Below are positions 10,330 to 57,559 of a DNA stretch of 64,000 nt, one piece after another. Position 1 is the first letter of the stretch; each line of letters opens with the position of its first letter. The position numbers and the translations under genes were made by a program. The notes under the pieces were generated by a model. That model was not told the DNA's origin, did not search any database, and saw nothing but the letters and a program-made list of their open reading frames with translations. The stretch is from Mobula hypostoma (taxonomy: Eukaryota): assembly GCF_963921235.1 (NCBI RefSeq), contig NC_086097.1, forward strand, positions 50,098,001-50,162,000. The letters run 5' to 3'.

Positions 10330-11816
10330 CAGCTTAATGATTAAATTTGGCTTTTTTGACACTGATCAACAGAAAAAGACTTTTTCATGTCAAGGTGAAA
10401 ACAAATCTTTACAAAGTGATCTAAATTAATTATACATATAAAACACAATATAATTGATTGCATAAGTATTCACCCCCTTTAATATGACACACCAAATCAT
10501 CACTGCTGCAGACAATTGGTTTTAGAAATCACATCTTAGTTAAATGGTTATCACCTGTGTGCAGTCATGTTTCAATAGATTGTAATAAAAATACACCTGT
10601 ATCTGGAAGGTTCACCTGCTGCTAAGTCAGTATCCTGGCAAAACTATACATGAAGATACAGGAACTCTCAAACAACTCCATGAAAGGATTATTGAAAAGT
10701 ACAAGTCAGGAGATGGATACAAGAAAATTTCAGTCACTGAATATTCCTTGGGTACAGTTAAGTCAATCATCAAGAAATGGAAAGAATATGGCACAGCTGT
10801 AAATTTGCCTAGAGCAGGCCATCCTCAAAAACGGAGTGACCATGCAAGAAGGGGACTCGTGAGGTACGCTACCAGGAGACCTATGGCAACCCTAGAGTTT
10901 CGAGCTTCAGTGTCTGAGATGGGAGAGACTACACATACAGTAACTTCTGCCCATGTGCTTCACCAGTCACAGATTTATGGGAGAGTGGTAAAGAGAAAGC
11001 ACTGCTGAAAAAAAAACTCACATTAAATCTCAGCTAGGATTTGCCAGAAGGCATATGGGGGGACTCTGAAGTCAGCTGGAAGAGGGTTCCAGTGTCTGAT
11101 GAAACCAAAATTGAGATTTATAGCTATCAGTCTAAACACTAACATCACACATCATCAAAAACACACCATCCCTACTGTAAAGCATGGTGGTGGGTGCATC
11201 ATGCTGTGGGAATGAATACAGCAAAATACAGGGAACTCCTGGAGGTAAACCTGATGCAGTCTGCAAGAAATCTACAATTTGGGAGATTTGTTTTCTAGCA
11301 GGATAATGACCCTAAGCATAAAGCCAAAGCTACACGGGCATGGCTTAAAAACAACAAAGTTAATGTCCTGGTGTGGCTGTCAGAATCCAGATCTCAATCC
11401 AGCTGAGAATTTTTGACCGGACCTGGAAAGGGCTGTTCACTCACGATCCCCATGCAACCTGACAGAGCTTGAGCAGTTTTGTAAAGAAGAATGGGGAAGA
11501 ATTGCAGTATCCAGGTTTGCAAAGCTGATAGAGACCTGTATACACAGACTCAAAGCTTTAATTGCTCCCAAAGGTGCATCTACTAAATATTGACTTGAAG
11601 GGGGTGAGTAATTATGCAATCAATTATCTTGTGTTAAACAATTGTAATAAATTTAGATCAATTTGTAGGAATTTGTTTTCACTTTGACATGAAAGAGTCT
11701 TTTCTGTTGATCAGTGTCCAAAAAAGCCAAGTTAAATCCACTGTGATTCATTGTTGTGAAACAATAAAACATGAAATCTAAAGGGGTGAATACTTTATAT
11801 AAATTTATAGGCACTA
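10330..11816 (+). mobile_element. Tc1-type DNA transposon with long IR/DR-like TIRs and a dead transposase (~10650-11593); outer part of the left TIR deleted
   Basis: Motifs SDETKIE (11092-11115), QDNDPKH (11299-11319) and PDLNP.EN (~11387-11410); 10335-10480 is inverted at 11595-11740; ends ggcacta|ta. Confidence 0.92.
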
Positions 11817-14740: not shown

Positions 14741-16015
14741 TGTCACAATGGCGGGGCATTGGGAGCAAGGGTGGACCCAAATGCAAGACACATCTTGTGA
14801 GATTACTTAGGTTTAGTTTATTGTACGATACCAGGAGAGCAAGACAGAAGCAGGAATAGCGAACAGGATAAGGACCCAGGACTTCGACTAGGCTGGGACC
14901 TAGGGTCTGGGCTTGGACTCGGAATCGGCTCCCAAGAACCAGAGGAGACATGAAGAAGCTAGGGTATGGACTCCGAGCCCAAGACTGGGCAAGGACCCAG
15001 TACCTGGGTCTTGCCTTGGGCTCGGACCCCAGAAGCAGGCATGGACATGACATGGGCTAGGGCGAGGAGGAACATGGAAAACAGAGCCTCGGTCTCGGGA
15101 GAGCAGGTACATGCAACCATGGACACATACACAGAACAGAGAGCTGGGACCCCTCCTTGGGTACAGGACATAGGGCCGGGACTCATGACCCTCCACGGGG
15201 CAATGGAAAGACGGCCTGACTTACCCCATGGAGGCGAGGACAAGACAAGACAAGACCAGCACGAATGAACACCAGACAGTACCTATCTAGCTCTGGTGAT
15301 GGAACTAGACCGAAGTGCAGGCAGGGGCTGCAGACGAGGGCTAGAGGCGAGAGGGGCAGAGAAGGGATTCAGACTAGGGGGTAGGACAGAAATCACAGAC
15401 CGCCAGGGCCAGGACTGGACTCAGAACTGGGAAGCCTCCAGGTACAGGACTTGACATGGTGCTTGAACGCCGCCAGGGCCAGGACTTGACATGGTACTTG
15501 AACGCTGCCAGGGCCAGGACTTGACATGGTACTTGAACGCTGCCAGGGAAAGGACTTGACATGGTACTTGAACGCTGCCAGGGCCAGGACTTGACATGGT
15601 ACTTGAATGCAGGCCGGAGACAGGACTTGACTTGGAGCCTCTGGGAACAGTAGACAGCGGTTCTTGATTCCCTCCGGCGGGTTAACTGACGGACCCACCT
15701 CAGTAAGGAAACTTTGCAGGCTCGCTTTGGTGAGGTAACTTGACAAGGTTGCTCCGGTGAGGAAAGGTGAATTACTGGCACTCGCTTTGGGCGGAGACTA
15801 GGCTTGCTCCGGCTAGATGAGGTTGGTATGCCGTGACTTTGCAGACGCTCCCACACCGAACGGCTCAAAGCCGGAGACTATAAACTACTGGTTCAGCCGA
15901 GTGCTAATTGCCTCTAATCACTGAAGTCGAGGGACATGGGAAAACAGGGAATCAATGGTCTGGATTGTAACATAAACAAGGTAAATGTAAAGGGACCCCG
16001 ATCCGGACCATGACA
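14741..16015 (-). mobile_element. Solo LTR (Gypsy/BEL-like) with an internal minisatellite
   Basis: Termini TGTCA...TGACA; flanks GTGTC/GTGCC (5 bp, one mismatch); AATAAA on the minus strand near 14820. Confidence 0.75.
15446..15610. repeat. 35-bp tandem repeat, ~5 copies (aggacttgacatggtacttgaacgctgccagggcc)
   Basis: Units start at 15446, 15481, 15516, 15551 and 15586. Confidence 0.95.
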
Positions 16016-20226: not shown

Positions 20227-20393
20227 CACTGACTTGGTTCCTTTCCCGTCAATAGACTCCAATTCAATAGAGCTGGGTATTCTTCGTTTCAGGCAATATT
20301 GCATTTTGTATGGTTCAGAATACTGCAAAATCTTGAGTGCATCTTCATACTTAACATTGTCAAAATAAATTGTAGCACTGATAAGTTGATCAC
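20227..20393 (-). CDS. AHNAK2: AHNAK2 PDZ domain, second half: (G)[55 protein letters not shown]
   Basis: Acceptor ccatcag and donor gtaagc; 167 nt, phase 1 to 0. [16 protein letters not shown] matches AHNAK2 rather than periaxin (EDALRLLQCAEPYK). Confidence 0.95.
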
Positions 20394-23757: not shown

Positions 23758-24365
23758 CGAGGGGTGATTGATAAGTTCGTGGCCTAAGGTAGAAGGAGTC
23801 AATTTTAGAAAAGTTAGCACATTTATTTTTCCTACATTTACACACTTAGTCCAGTAGTCATGGATCATACGGATCCCTTCTTTGTAGAAGTCAACATCTT
23901 GGACCTCCACAAGTGGTCCACAGCAGGGGTGATTGATAAGTTCGTGGCCTAAGGTGGAATAAGATGAGGAGAAACTTCAAATTTTCTGCATTTTCACTCA
24001 GAGTTGAACTGCACGTACATATAACAAGAGCTGTATAACTCATCTCCTTCTAGCTTAGGCCACTAACTTATCAATCACCCCTGCTGTGGACCACCTGGAG
24101 GTCCAAGATGCTCTCATTATATGCATGTGCAGTTCAACTCTCTGAGTGATAATGCAGAAAGTTTGAAGTTAATAACTCATCTCCTTCTACCCTAGGCCAC
24201 GAACTTATCAATCACCCCTGCTGCAGACCACTTCTACAAAGAAGGGATCCGTATTCTCCACGACCACTGGACTAAGTGTGTACATGTAGGAGGGGACTAT
24301 GTTGAAAAATAAATGTGCTATTGACTCCTCCTACCTTAGGCCATGAAATTATCAATCACCCCTCG
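23758..24365. mobile_element. Mariner-like MITE, quasi-palindromic, with five TIR copies
   Basis: TIR CGAGGGGTGATTGATAAGTTCGTGGCCTAAGGTAG at both ends; CA and TA flanks (TA TSD, one mutated); inserted in a CR1 3' tail. Confidence 0.88.
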
Positions 24366-25420
24366 TAAATCAGCCATGATAGAATAGTGGGGAAGACTCT
24401 GGGTTAAATGGCCTAATTCTGCTCCTGTGTCTTATGGTCTTAAGGTCTTTTGTACCTGAAACTTAAGATCCCGGGATCTATTTAATTGAAGAAAGAATCA
24501 AGAAATTTTATTACCATGTCGTAGTCCATGCAACTTTACATATAAAAGAAAGCATTTGAGTTACTCAGCACTCAAGTCACATAATGGACTTCAGAAAAGT
24601 TTCTGGAGCCAACAGATGGAGCTTGGAATTTTTTTGTCCAGTAAAACTGTGATGACTGAATTCTTGCATATATTCAAAGATGAGCTAGTCTTTTCATCTT
24701 GTTGGAGGAACCTAGGAATACGGAGATGGGCAGGAAAATGGACCAGGGAAGTTGACTCATCCATGATCTTACAGTGGGGGGAAAAAAGGGGGTTAAGAGG
24801 GAAAAAAAATAGCCATGGTTGAATGGTGGGGCAGATTTTATGGGCCAAATGGACTAATATTGCTCCTATATTTTATGGTCTTATGAAAAATGCTCAAGAC
24901 GCTGAATTGCCTCTATTCCTATTATAGTCATAGTACATTTACACATAAATTTATTTTTATTTCATATTTTTCTGTAATATTTCAACAACTGTTTTCGGCA
25001 TTACTCTTGCAGTTTTATGCTAGCATTTAAGTTATTCATCTGAAGTAATTTCTATGGGAATTTTAGCAGATATACTAATCTATTTTAAAATATACTTGCA
25101 GTGGTATAAGACACTGGTGAAGCTTCACCTGGATTATTGTGCACAGATTTGGTCACCTTGTTATAGGAAAGATATCATTAAGCTAAAAAGATGGCAAAGA
25201 AGATTTACAAGGATGTTACCAAGTCTCAAGGGAGACTGAGTAGATAACTTTATAGAGATGTATAAAATTATGAGGGGCCTAGATAGGGTGAAGATACAGT
25301 TTTTTTTACCAAGGTACAGTGGTGTTTATATGAAACAATCTGTCAGAAAGCAGTTAAGTCAGGTTCAATAACAACATTTTTTTAAAAACGGATGAAATAG
25401 ATGGTTCGGAAGTATATGTC

Positions 25421-26989: not shown

Positions 26990-28058
26990 TTAGAACATTA
27001 AAGAGTACAGCATAGGAACAGGCCATGTGGCACATTCTGTTGTGCCGAGCCAGCTAAAAAGCAAATCAAATACACCCAAACACTAATCCCTCCTACCTAC
27101 ACCATGTCCATATCCCTCCATCTTCCTTATATCCATGTGCCTATCCAAGCATCTCTTAAAAGCTTCTAATGTATTCGCCTTTACCAACATACTAGGCAAT
27201 TCATTCCAGACATCCACGACTGAGTAAAAAAACTTAGACCTCACATCCACCTTGAACCTACCCCCTGTCACCTTCAATGCATGCCCAATGGTATTAGCCA
27301 TTTCAATCCTGGGAAACAGATACTCTCAGTCCACTCTATGCCTCTCATAATCTTGTAAACCTCTATTAGATCTCACCTCAGCCTCTGACACTCTAGAGAA
27401 AACAATCCAGGTTTATCCGGCCTCTTGTGATAGCGCATACCCTCTAAACCAGACATCATTCTGGTAAACCTCTTCTGCACCCTCCCCAAAGCCTTAACAT
27501 CCTTCTTATTGTGGGGTGACCATAACTGTATGTAATATTCCAGATGTGTCATAACCAGAGTTTTATAAAGTTACAACATAACCCCCTGACTTTTAAACTC
27601 AAAAGCAAGCATTCCTTAAGCTTTCCTAACATCTTATCGACCTGTGCAGCTACTTTCAAGGAGCAAAGAAGTTGGATCACTGGTCAGCAGCACTTTTTAC
27701 TGAACATCTGGTTTTACATTCCATGTTTTACCTTCTCTCATACTTAGACATTTTGCAGCAGGGGACTCTTTCAGAACATGTTTAATAAATATCCCATCCT
27801 TTTCTCCACCTCCAACAATGACCCTGCCCTTAACAGTGTACTGTCTCCTTGCATTTGCCCTCCCAAGGTGCAACACTTCACATTTGTCTGGGTTAAAATC
27901 CATCTGCCATTTCTCAGCCCATATCTGCAACTGATCTATATCGTGCTGTATTCTTTGCCAGTCTTCTACACCATCCACAACCCCACCGATCTTGGTATCA
28001 TTCGCGAATTTACTAACCCACCCATCTACATTTTCATCCAGCCCATTTATACACATTA
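26990..28058 (-). mobile_element. CR1 3' portion containing the captured AHNAK2 exon fragment
   Basis: ORF 27697-28056 (WVSKFANDTKIGG...KWQMDFNPDKCEVLHLG); CR1 sequence resumes after ~27665 (SLKVAAQVD) and runs to the tail near 26990. Confidence 0.9.
27691..27820 (-). pseudogene. Partial duplicate of the AHNAK2 PDZ exon 3' half plus its donor and ~40 nt of intron, embedded in a CR1
   Basis: Aligns by eye with 28527-28655 at about 90% identity; encodes GGEKDGIFIKHVLKESPAAKCLSMREG. Confidence 0.92.
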
Positions 28059-28566
28059 TAAATAAACCTTATTTTATATGTAAAATAAAGAAATCTTTTA
28101 ATGATAAAACTTATATTACTATTATTAAAACTGTTTTCTGTACATCCATATTTCTAATGTTCCCCTGTCCATAATTTCACAATAACTGATGTTGGATTGG
28201 CTGGTTGAAACAACAGATTTCACAATCATACTTGAGAATGATTCTAACTCTGAAAAGTGCCGTGGCAGAAGCCGTCAATGGTACCACCCATTTTGAATAG
28301 TGGGATGCATTGATGTTGATGTTTACTTAGGGTGAATTTTTCAGAGCTGGGAGTGTACACACGGTTTTCCAGCAGAAGGTGAACTTTGTATCTGGAGCCA
28401 ATGGCAAACTGGTTGAATAACCCTGAAAGAAATTAAACTTTTCTGTACTGCACATCTAAATACTAATATGTAGTCCATAAACTGTTGGAAGAACACTTGG
28501 GTTCTTCTGGTGGTGAACGTTAATAACATTTTTACTAAACGGCTGGTTTTACATTCCATATTTTAC

Positions 28567-28723
28567 CTTCTCTCATGCTTAGACGTTTTGCAGCAGGGGA
28601 CTCTTTCAGAACGTGCTTAATAAATATCCCATCCTTTTCTCCACCTCTAACACTGAAGCCACTTGCACCTTTTTCAACATCTGTGTTCACAACCACTTCC
28701 ACAATATCCTCTTGTTTTACTTC
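28567..28723 (-). CDS. AHNAK2: AHNAK2 PDZ domain, first half: EVKQEDIVEVVVNTDVEKGASGFSVRGGEKDGIFIKHVLKESPAAKRLSMRE(G)
   Basis: Acceptor tttcttctag and donor gtaaaa; 157 nt, phase 0 to 1; AHNAK/periaxin-type PDZ motifs GASGFSV.GG..GIF and SPAAK.LS..EG. Confidence 0.95.
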
Positions 28724-28854
28724 CTAGAAGAAATGCAAAGTAATTTAAATGCCTGTAAATGGTGTGGCAATTATTTTCATTAATTCTATTCCATTTGTCT
28801 TCAGATGAAACACGTGCTTTGAAAATTGTAGACAGTAAAAATAAATGAACCTAC

Positions 28855-28962
28855 CCCCTTGTCACTCATGTTTGCAGGAAATAGTTTTTTTGACAACTGT
28901 TCTAATCCTTGCTTATGGTCTGTAATGTTAGTAGATGACTTGGTTGGTGTTTCCTCCAGCAC
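28855..28962 (-). CDS. AHNAK2: AHNAK2 coding exon: VLEETPTKSSTNITDHKQGLEQLSKKLFPANMSDKG
   Basis: Acceptor ttgtgcag and donor gtaggt; 108 nt, phase 0-0, open frame; a 131-bp intron separates it from the PDZ exon. Confidence 0.82.
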
Positions 28963-51000: not shown

Positions 51001-52250
51001 AGAATAGCTGATACACTAGTGGGCTTAACCATGAGCTGCTCTAAAAAGACATCTTGTAGGCATTCTAGAAATCCAGCACAAACCTGATTTTTTTCCAATC
51101 TATCTGCATATTGAAATACCCCATGACCTTTGTAACATTGCCCTTTTGCCAAGTATTTGCTATCTCTGTTATAACTTGTAGACCACATCCTTACTACTGT
51201 TTGGGGGAATCTGTATGTACCTCCCATCAGGGTCTTTTTACCCCTGCAGTTCCTTACTGTATCCACGATTCAACAGCTTCCGACCCTATGTCACCTCTTT
51301 ATAATGATATATTTTCACTTTTTACCAACAAGTTACGCCACACCCTCTGCCTTCCTATCCATCCTTTTGATTCAACGTGTATCCTTGGACATTAATCTCC
51401 CAGCTATAATCTTCTTTCAGCCATGATTCAGTGATGCCTACAACATCATACATGCCAATCTGTAACTCTACTACCAGATCATCTACCTTATTCTGTATGC
51501 TGCGTGCTTTCAGATATAACACCTTTAATCCTCTATTCACCCGTTTCGATTTTGTCTGCCTTTTATGTTGCAACTCATCCTGTTGACTTCAATTTTGCCC
51601 TGTCATCAGCGTCTTCTTGCTAGGAGTCTCAGTACACATTGGCTCTGTTTGTAAATCAACTACATCATCTTCAGCACTATCACTCTGGTTTCTCTCCCTC
51701 TACCAAATTAGTTTAAACCCATCCAAGCAATTCTAGCCAGCCTGCCCTCAAGGATATTGGACCCCTCGAGTTCAGGTGTAATCCATCCCTTTTGTACAAG
51801 TCATACCTTCCCCAGAAGAGATCCCAATGATCCATAAATCTGAACCCCTGCCCCCTGCACCAGTCCTCAGCCACGCATTCACCTGCCAATTCATGCTATT
51901 CTTACCCTCACTAGCCAATGGCACAGGCAGCAATCCAGAGCTCACTTCTCTGGAGGTCCTGTTTCTCAACTTTCTGCTTAGCTCCCTAAAATCTTTCTTC
52001 AGGACCTCCTTATCATGTCTACCTAGGTCATTGGTGCCAATACGTACCAAGACTTCCGGCTGCTCACCCTCACCCTTAAGAATACCATAGATATGATCCG
52101 AGACCTCCTGATTCTGGCACCAAGGAGGCAACATACCACAAGGGTGTCTCAATCATGCCCTCAGAACCTCATCTCTGCTCTTCTAAGCCACAGTGCCAGA
52201 GATTCAGTCACCGGGCTCCTCCCTGGTAGGTCGTCCCCCTCTTGCTGATT
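48075..52250 (-). mobile_element. Near full-length decayed CR1 (ORF1 esterase ~51700-52150, ORF2 to the 3' tail)
   Basis: ORFs RIGTND..., LYLKARSIQNK, DVVYLDFQKAFDK and SLNIEGCPFRTEMR. Confidence 0.9.
50210..50866 (-). mobile_element. Second copy of the ~660-bp AAGATGGCG-headed element, inserted in CR1
   Basis: Reverse complement of 31499-32165; poly(A) tail at ~50205-50214. Confidence 0.82.
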
Positions 52251-52268
52251 GGTCGCTCCTCAACTCAG

Positions 52269-52570
52269 GAAAACTGCCATGAAACTCAGCCTTCAAAATC
52301 TTGATCACTGCCCTGATTTTAAAAGTAGCTCTTTTCATACACCCCTGGCATGGATTGTCCAACTCAGAAAACTGACTTGAAGTTCTGCTTTTTAAATCTT
52401 GAACGTGAACCTGACTGAAAGGTAGCATTTTTTACACACTGCTGCTTACCGATTGTCACTCCCCAAAACGGAAAAACTGCCCAAAACTCTGCCTTCAAAA
52501 TCTTGATTGCCACCCTGTTTAAAAGTAGCTCTTTTCACACATCCCTGATGTGGATTGTCCAATTTAAGAA
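52269..52570. repeat. ~100-bp direct repeat, 2 copies about 203 bp apart, just 5' of the CR1
   Basis: aaaactgcc...ccttcaaaatcttgat...aaaagtagctcttttca...tggattgtccaa at ~52269 and ~52473. Confidence 0.85.
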
Positions 52571-56785: not shown

Positions 56786-57559
56786 ATAAATTAATGGAAA
56801 AACTCAGTGTATCAAACAGCAGAGGTGGAAGCAAGAGATAGTTAACATTTCAGTCTGAGACCCTGCAGAATAATTTTGTACTCTTCATTGCTGCTAAGAT
56901 GTTGCAAAGGATGCAGCATACATGGAAAGCAAATCTGCTCTTAAATTGGTCACCAGTGTCTGTAAAATTGGAATATCAGAAAACAATTGAAAAAACAAAC
57001 TTCAAAGCTATTTAAATTGCAGAATAACTACCATGCCTGTTCCATTTCATTCATTTTTTTTTGTGTAGGAGGAAGGATTTGGGAGTCAATGTTCCTGTTC
57101 CATTTTTGTTCGTTTTTGTGCAGGAGGAGGGATTTGAGGGTGTTGAAGTGCCTGTTCCATTTTGTTCATTTATTTTTGTGTGGGAGGAGGGATGTGGGGT
57201 TGATGTGCCTGTTTCGTGTTTATTTGTTTTGTGTGCTGTGAGTGGGTGGATTCTGAGGGTTGATGATTTCTCCTTTCACTCCGTATCATGGCTATCTAGA
57301 GAAGAAGAATTTCAGCGTTGTGTACTTTGATAATAAAATGAACCTTTGATTTAAAAGTGATCATGCAATTGGAACAAATATTTAAATGATATGTATTAAT
57401 TAAATTTTATACTTTTAATTTTGTGTTGTAGTTATACATAGCAAGTTTTGTGGTAATATAAAAAGCCAATCATTGTACACATATGATTATTGGCACTAGG
57501 TGAGAGGTACTGCGGCAGTTTTCCAAATATGCCTTGGCCTTCAGAATTTAAGTTGTTAA

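Follow-up and report, generated by a model that had tools for sequence, protein, structure and literature searches.

How did the end of a PDZ exon, together with its splice donor and the beginning of the adjoining intron, come to lie within a retrotransposon in that intron? The question is raised by two segments of the 64,000-nt stretch of Mobula hypostoma DNA analysed here (the window):

27694..27821, minus strand: 128-nt copy, with the 3′ 90 nt of a PDZ exon, the GT donor and 38 nt of intron (repeat alignment, genome search)
28529..28656, minus strand: source of the copy, beginning CAGTGTT (28655) and ending before TGTT (28528) (alignment)

The two form a direct repeat of 128 nt, 835 nt apart on the same strand, with 118 of the 128 positions identical (92.2%, ten differences; E 6e-49 in a comparison within the window). 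This agrees with the copy of about 125 bp, in the same orientation and about 840 bp away, that a preliminary description had recognized, and the content given there (3′ half of the PDZ exon, GT donor, about 40 nt of intron) is also correct, the exon part ending at 27732 and the donor being intact. A genome search with the 128 nt, by a method that skips common words, returned two matches, the copy and its source. Contigs from three other organisms, here C, D and F, cover the copy (C 27680-27808, D 27635-27808, F 27609-27812) and bridge its right junction, D with 59 nt of LINE, F with 85 nt and C with 14 aligned nt. An assembly artefact, which the preliminary description had named among the outcomes that would overturn its reading, is refuted by these contigs and by the ten differences from the source, and we give it next to no credence. 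The duplicate is real, old and single-copy. A self-comparison for local duplicates over 309 kb gave 12 local pairs, and the two examined more closely are common repeats.

The source is part of a host gene whose relevant elements are as follows:

28567..28723, minus strand: the genuine PDZ exon (AHNAK2/periaxin-family gene), followed by its GT donor at 28566-28565 (Pfam PDZ, PDB 4cn0 and 4cmz, RNA contig)
20227..20393, minus strand: next PDZ exon (sequence reading)
27730..27735, minus strand: duplicated (decoy) splice donor, last exon-side base 27732 (motif AAG|GTAAAA)

The exon encodes the first half of the domain and matches the Pfam PDZ profile with E 7.9e-5 (23.4 bits, cut-off 23.2). Its best matches in the PDB are the PDZ domains of AHNAK2 (E 4.9e-11) and periaxin (E 4.9e-10). 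This N-terminal PDZ is closest to the AHNAK2/PRX structures, and for the gene that the preliminary description called AHNAK2 we use the wider name AHNAK2/periaxin family. In one run, guessed to be RNA, a contig spans 28565-28722 with no difference from the exon. The same presumed-RNA run shows the canonical exon and gives no cover on the copy, its contigs being silent on rare use. The donor had been described as intact in the copy, and AAG|GTAAAA is indeed the same in copy and source, with positions -3 to +6 identical. Further upstream, an exon apparently ends at 28855, leaving a 131-nt intron (28724-28854), which would account for the low divergence of 28617-28896 in other organisms.

The copy interrupts a CR1-like LINE that extends from 28062 to about 26990, is 5′-truncated and lies sense to the gene, so that the captured piece and the LINE share one orientation:

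27822..28062, minus strand: 5′ piece of the 5′-truncated CR1-like LINE, in host-gene sense and with an RT palm/thumb fragment (LINE relatives; Pfam RVT_1 at E 0.06 only)
26990..27693, minus strand: 3′ piece of that LINE, which picks up again in the final bases of a hairpin's 3′ arm and ends in a degenerate (GTTCTAT)n-type tail (LINE relatives)

The Pfam RVT_1 match of the 5′ piece is below the cut-off, as this is a fragment only; what we take to be RT-like motifs are visible in its translation. Relatives end in a CR1-type 3′ microsatellite, a 7-nt GTTCTAT-type repeat that is degenerate in the window and is a variant of the bird CR1 octamer ATTCTRTG, as the latter is given in the available text of PMC8665684. 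A local 3′ stem-loop before the tail is predicted in the LINE, but its z is no better than -0.50 over 101 nt. Inspection of the flanks by eye revealed no evident target-site duplication around the LINE, and no empty site was identified.

Comparison with relatives defines what the insertion removed. Of 79 loci examined (6 duplicates), 65 span the point (59 distinct), and none of these 65 carries any insert at this point; with only two genomic matches, the captured piece is not a chimera family that has spread. The full 37-nt interval between easily aligned blocks is present at 50 of the 65 spanning loci and is longer at none. Intact relatives read ...GGGCAAG(A/G)TC CTTAAC AGTGTTGCTGAG... at this point. 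The window LINE stops at ...GGTC (27820) and resumes with (A)GTGCTG (27694/27693), the TC at 27821-27820 being common to LINE and source. Hence 6-7 nt were lost at the insert, and the earlier statement that about 40 nt of CR1 ORF2 had been replaced is wrong, as most of the relatives' 37 nt is still in place. At about 27679, 14 nt from the insert, the LINE has a separate deletion, which measures about 10 nt in the window and 8 nt in D and F. We also considered two different LINEs flanking the insert, first suggested by identities of 87-90% vs 73-83% and by difference counts of 12/232 vs 62/579, the latter from a comparison in which 18 of 49 loci were dropped for short or missing pieces. This reading was abandoned: those relatives had been picked on the upstream piece, and among 30 copies picked by another copy 8 are as low upstream, several with the same contrast.

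Both junctions carry microhomology, TC with an adjacent 7-mer on the left and A with a TGTT-like match on the right. The 7-mer, CAGTGTT, has a single occurrence on the source strand within about 3 kb to left and right, and 12 in the 64-kb window when both strands are counted; the TGTT that follows the right end of the source is a common match. The left junction also shows the homeology AAGG-GCAAG. Extended homeology was tried by alignment score; the score of 17 recurs at two further places within about 3 kb, and the right end does no better than 73% of windows. For this reason we retain the exact 7-mer alone as evidence.

The insertion point coincides with a hairpin. Its stem, within the part that codes for RT, is perfect over 12 bp in intact copies (among them L036/L053, L055 and L058) and is closed by a loop of 7 nt. 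The remnant in the window, which folds no longer, is placed by the fold of those copies:

27820..27839, minus strand: hairpin remnant, with the 5′ arm at 27839-27828, the loop at 27827-27821 and the first base of the 3′ arm at 27820

In the last kilobase of the LINE family, this hairpin is the most stable of 197 40-nt windows in all four real copies folded, which carry the commonest junction. Its stability has a z of -3.65, and none of 200 shuffles is as stable. Numbered -9 to +21, the hairpin holds both junctions in its 3′ arm, at +10 and +17/18, and this is the arm that reverse transcription meets first. The AGTGTT of the 3′ arm is matched over 7 nt where the source ends in the exon, and weakly where it ends in the intron.

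We favour, with somewhat better than even confidence, a one-off out-and-back template switch during insertion of the LINE into the intron. Reverse transcription, running 3′ to 5′ on the LINE RNA, would have come to a halt a few bases inside the stem. The cDNA end, set free, would then have annealed to the sense strand of host sequence about 470 nt upstream of the target site, either in single-stranded resected flank DNA, which we slightly prefer, or in the nascent unspliced transcript. Synthesis would have passed back over the donor and on into the exon, for 128 nt in all, after which CAGTGTT may have re-paired with the LINE RNA and slipped to the loop, with loss of CTTAAC (6-7 nt). LINE synthesis would have continued for a further 240 nt before 5′ joining. 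Read right to left along the cDNA, one short motif could account for both jumps, with the end at the stem base landing on the weak intron match. Geometry, hairpin, microhomology, hotspot and shared presence are observed; the direction of synthesis and the template are our reading of the sequence. The source lies 467-594 nt upstream of the LINE 5′ end, on the sense strand, and such an upstream, same-strand position is the geometry to be expected of the 5′ flank in target-primed insertion. The unspliced local template that the preliminary description had proposed is supported by the inclusion of intron and by the single source. An unspliced sense sequence agrees equally with nascent RNA and with flank DNA as its template.

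A switch at a structure that pauses the RT would agree with the predicted fold and with an excess of LINE 5′ ends at the hairpin. The sample comprised 85 copies picked on downstream sequence, 3 of them without anchor and 82 anchored; 76 were at risk at +21, the other 6 having ended downstream of the hairpin. Ten of these 76 end within the 31-nt hairpin, the top of 13 bins, where 4.2 are expected at constant hazard (binomial P 0.008), the ends being BLAST alignment ends accurate to about 10 nt and the copies top-scoring matches, not random ones. The excess was seen both in the first set (5/32, P 0.07) and in the set fetched after the idea had been fixed (5/44, P 0.04). Against the six neighbouring bins the binomial P is 0.009 (Fisher 0.02), and against the four upstream bins it is 0.043 (Fisher P 0.08). 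The excess is only about two-fold and falls to the latter Fisher value, which we count as a reservation about the switch during insertion.

Internal deletions are likewise enriched here. Among alignments covering the hairpin, 11 of 113 have a deletion of at least 8 nt with a breakpoint at it, vs 4.5% elsewhere (P 0.013; 8 recurrent deletions of 103 dropped), and 10 of 123 do so in the next bin. The hairpin is a roughly two-fold hotspot for both 5′ ends and internal deletions. The enrichment of deletions agrees equally well with fragility of the DNA and is evidence for an origin after insertion. In that account the 12-bp inverted repeat, with the LINE already in place, blocked a replication fork or was cleaved; template switching guided by microhomology (MMBIR/FoSTeS, or polymerase-theta end joining) would then have moved to DNA 835 nt away, copied 128 nt there and come back. 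This account is a serious contender, to which we nevertheless assign clearly less than an even chance. It is in keeping with a hairpin that folds as DNA too, on both strands (-12.5/-12.7 kcal/mol), and the second small deletion 14 nt away would fit serial switching. Such an origin does not predict an upstream, same-strand source, and 3′-side breaks fall in the hairpin in none of 29 copies picked on upstream sequence, one of which ends at +31. The homeology AAGG-GCAAG suits synthesis in the opposite direction, left to right, as would the G at 27813, which could be LINE-derived.

Two individual loci deserve mention beside the hotspot. One LINE copy (L106, G000:C76:31762535-31763075) has lost about 75 nt up to the hairpin base and holds a short filler that repeats adjacent LINE sequence, a repair-like scar; upstream of this, a short repeat has gone in with what looks like a target duplication. 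The locus was considered as a second capture, a reading rejected since these two changes, the repeat insertion and the deletion, explain it. At another locus (L041), the LINE pieces at 83-200 and from 624 on, which are 540 nt apart, both start inside the hairpin, at +3 and +11.

The same final order of pieces would also result from two events, a tandem duplication of 835 nt and a later deletion of about 710 nt, and the 7-nt match would serve the duplication junction. This requires the deletion to stop no more than 6-7 nt from where the 835-nt unit ends, about 1 in 100 by chance, and we hold this history to be very improbable. A bolder form of the switch during insertion would have the RT pause at the hairpin of its own RNA, move to the nascent pre-mRNA of the gene in which it was landing, copy the exon/intron junction and return within 7 nt, planting a second donor, with the hairpin as one measurable cause of the family's 5′ truncation; we regard this full chain as rather doubtful.

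Whether LINE and insert arrived together was addressed with other organisms, four runs of 24 being compared with the window. LINE and insert occur together in all three related organisms covered (C, D and F), an allele with the LINE but no insert was seen in none of the three, and the LINE 5′ junction is also present in D and F. Divergence from the window beside the exon is 18/513 in C, 44/660 in D and 43/636 in F. The preliminary description had proposed the orthologous intron of related rays as the place to look for joint arrival. Presence together is what this check found; at only 3.5-6.8% divergence the three are too close to the window, and co-arrival of LINE and insert is therefore not separable from later insertion, the LINE being older than the split. 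Across 28130-28568, many of the listed differences are common to all three others, which suggests a longer terminal branch for the organism of the window than for C.

The three organisms also help to place individual changes. All of them carry the letter of the copy at source positions 28537 and 28542, and both differences therefore arose in the source. Contig ends and depth arithmetic suggest a collapsed 43-nt contig (28614-28656) in organism C. If so, the copy equals the exon there, the left junction is fixed and the AAG/AAA change is probably on the exon side. Of the seven remaining differences, three are CpG decays in the copy, which has lost three of three CpGs. From a rough likelihood, the age of the copy before the split is 3.8-5.0% (support 1.3-11%), with about 3% since. 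The LINE in the window differs from 30 copies picked by another copy at 17/241 and 82/709 sites (99/950 from the column majority); its relatives average 9.0% and 10.2%, or about 8% at stable sites. On these divergences the ages of insert and LINE appear to overlap and are inseparable. An insert that predates the split of the four organisms and is not measurably younger than the LINE weighs against an origin after insertion. The double template switch at insertion proposed earlier thus survives the co-presence and age checks and gains the hairpin and the 5′-end excess; a later switch in DNA stands beside it.

Does the copy do anything? The frame 27697-28068 is open from stop to stop, an RT fragment followed by ...GGEKDGIFIKHVLKESPAAKCLSMREG, as the preliminary description had reported of its chimeric CR1-RT/host frame. 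Nine of 30 LINE relatives are also open over the same LINE stretch, and there is no evidence that the chimeric frame has meaning. The four exonic differences named earlier are as described, and two more, at 27813 and 27818, are non-synonymous. With these included, 3 of 6 are synonymous, and the claimed synonymous bias does not hold; what there was of it is explained, without selection on the copy, by CpG decay in the copy together with one synonymous change that probably occurred in the exon. Selection on the chimeric frame was considered from a count of 6/6 synonymous (P 0.034) in a biased set and was given up when a better set gave 7/9 (P 0.08).

That the piece was kept as a working splice element, which is compatible with any origin, would make it either a decoy donor or part of a cassette joining the RT fragment to half a PDZ domain:

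27732..28067, minus strand: hypothetical stop-free phase 1-1 cassette of 336 nt, bounded by the decoy donor and a weak AAG|G acceptor (28069-28068) (sequence reading)

We judge either use improbable. The donor is the same as the real one from -3 to +6, the 336-nt unit is free of stops and of matching phase, and changes in the LINE 5′ piece number 7 synonymous to 9 non-synonymous, where relatives show 24% synonymous (the P 0.08 above). Organism F has at least one difference in 88 assessable nt of the copy vs 43/636 in adjacent sequence (P 0.018), among the 40 of 129 rows listed. On the other side, the bounds on copy divergence in C and D give P 0.22-0.23, the acceptor is weak, neither the LINE 5′ piece nor 28068 offering an AG preceded by a 60% pyrimidine tract, and use of the decoy donor from the real acceptor meets a stop at codon 63. 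The openness of 9 of 30 relatives and the non-synonymous changes among those on the copy branch point the same way. Contigs and sequence comparison gave no evidence of splicing use or of selection on the copy, and the duplicated piece is most likely a functionless copy with a spare donor.

Known systems resemble parts of this event. In the elements ZfL2-1 and ZfL2-2, the available accounts describe extra nucleotides at the 5′ end templated from flanking DNA (PMC4245944, PMC4760211). These are LINEs of fish in the CR1/L2 group, and there too, as the element inserts, upstream genomic DNA serves as template for a cDNA end that has annealed to it. Their filler is short and at the 5′ junction, whereas here 128 nt are internal and synthesis goes back to the LINE. 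Three L1 insertions carry sequence templated near the site (PMC11702581), sharing local genomic filler and same-orientation switching with the present case; they are experimental and somatic, are attributed to reciprocal-end processing, and the passages available describe no return to the same LINE RNA.

Double template jumps, with hairpins predicted at the switch sites, are reported for the Magnaporthe MGL element (PMC2104539). Tripartite chimeric retrogenes of MGL and mammalian L1 (PMC2104539, PMC13174262) resemble the present case in the double jump, the hairpin at the switch site and the same orientation. As far as these sources extend, such retrogenes combine three unlinked RNAs, with the LINE at the 3′ end only, a target-site duplication and no microhomology; here, unlike them, the order is LINE, host, same LINE, and the source is linked and unspliced. 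The accessible part of PMC2104539 reports that no microhomology was found at the switch sites of the MGL RT, which we count against a switch during insertion.

For an origin after insertion, the closest likeness is to MMBIR-type insertions (PMC8421209, PMC4617611), with a nearby template, microhomology or microhomeology at both ends, a small deletion and germline fixation. The signature given for MMB-TI in the available text of PMC8421209, namely 2-13 nt of microhomology, tolerance of a 3′-terminal mismatch, return to the original template and accumulation in the germline, matches the microhomology and microhomeology at both of our junctions. A local template with junction microhomology, as looked for in MMBIR/TMEJ, is what we find. 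Locally templated insertions are also common without a LINE: among 1,651 complex human deletions, 871 involved a template no more than 10 kb away (PMC4617611). The MMB-TI search was limited to templates within 100 bp, and the portions available of both reports draw no link to retrotransposition (PMC8421209, PMC4617611). A search of titles and abstract openings, mostly of open-access literature, turned up no description of a LINE-host-same-LINE excursion onto the host's own exon junction. New here is the hairpin at the junctions; in other respects the event belongs, as a variant, with the LINE template switches and templated insertions already described.

In the available text of PMC4760211, the reason for the 5′ truncation of most LINE copies is treated as unsettled, with RT processivity and host repair as the candidates. 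Here a single RNA hairpin coincides with an excess of truncations and also with a rescued excursion, so that the pause-and-anneal model can be tested in vitro and, within this family, genome-wide. Were the model true, a host gene's splice donor could be duplicated by a LINE inserting into that gene. The duplicate itself, one dead copy of no demonstrated function, carries little direct biological weight.

Other repeats in the window were noted in passing. At 24000-24375 a 60-nt direct repeat occurs three times, spaced 137-144 nt apart and accompanied by a 32-nt inverted repeat; these are probably the tails of short repeats. An inverted pair of 145 nt (10339-10482 and 11595-11738) is a common repeat with more than 2,400 candidates genome-wide. 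Near-tandem duplications of 94-122 nt, with 77-80% identity and no other match in 309 kb, are located at 52241-52562, 57034-57260 and 15402-15635.
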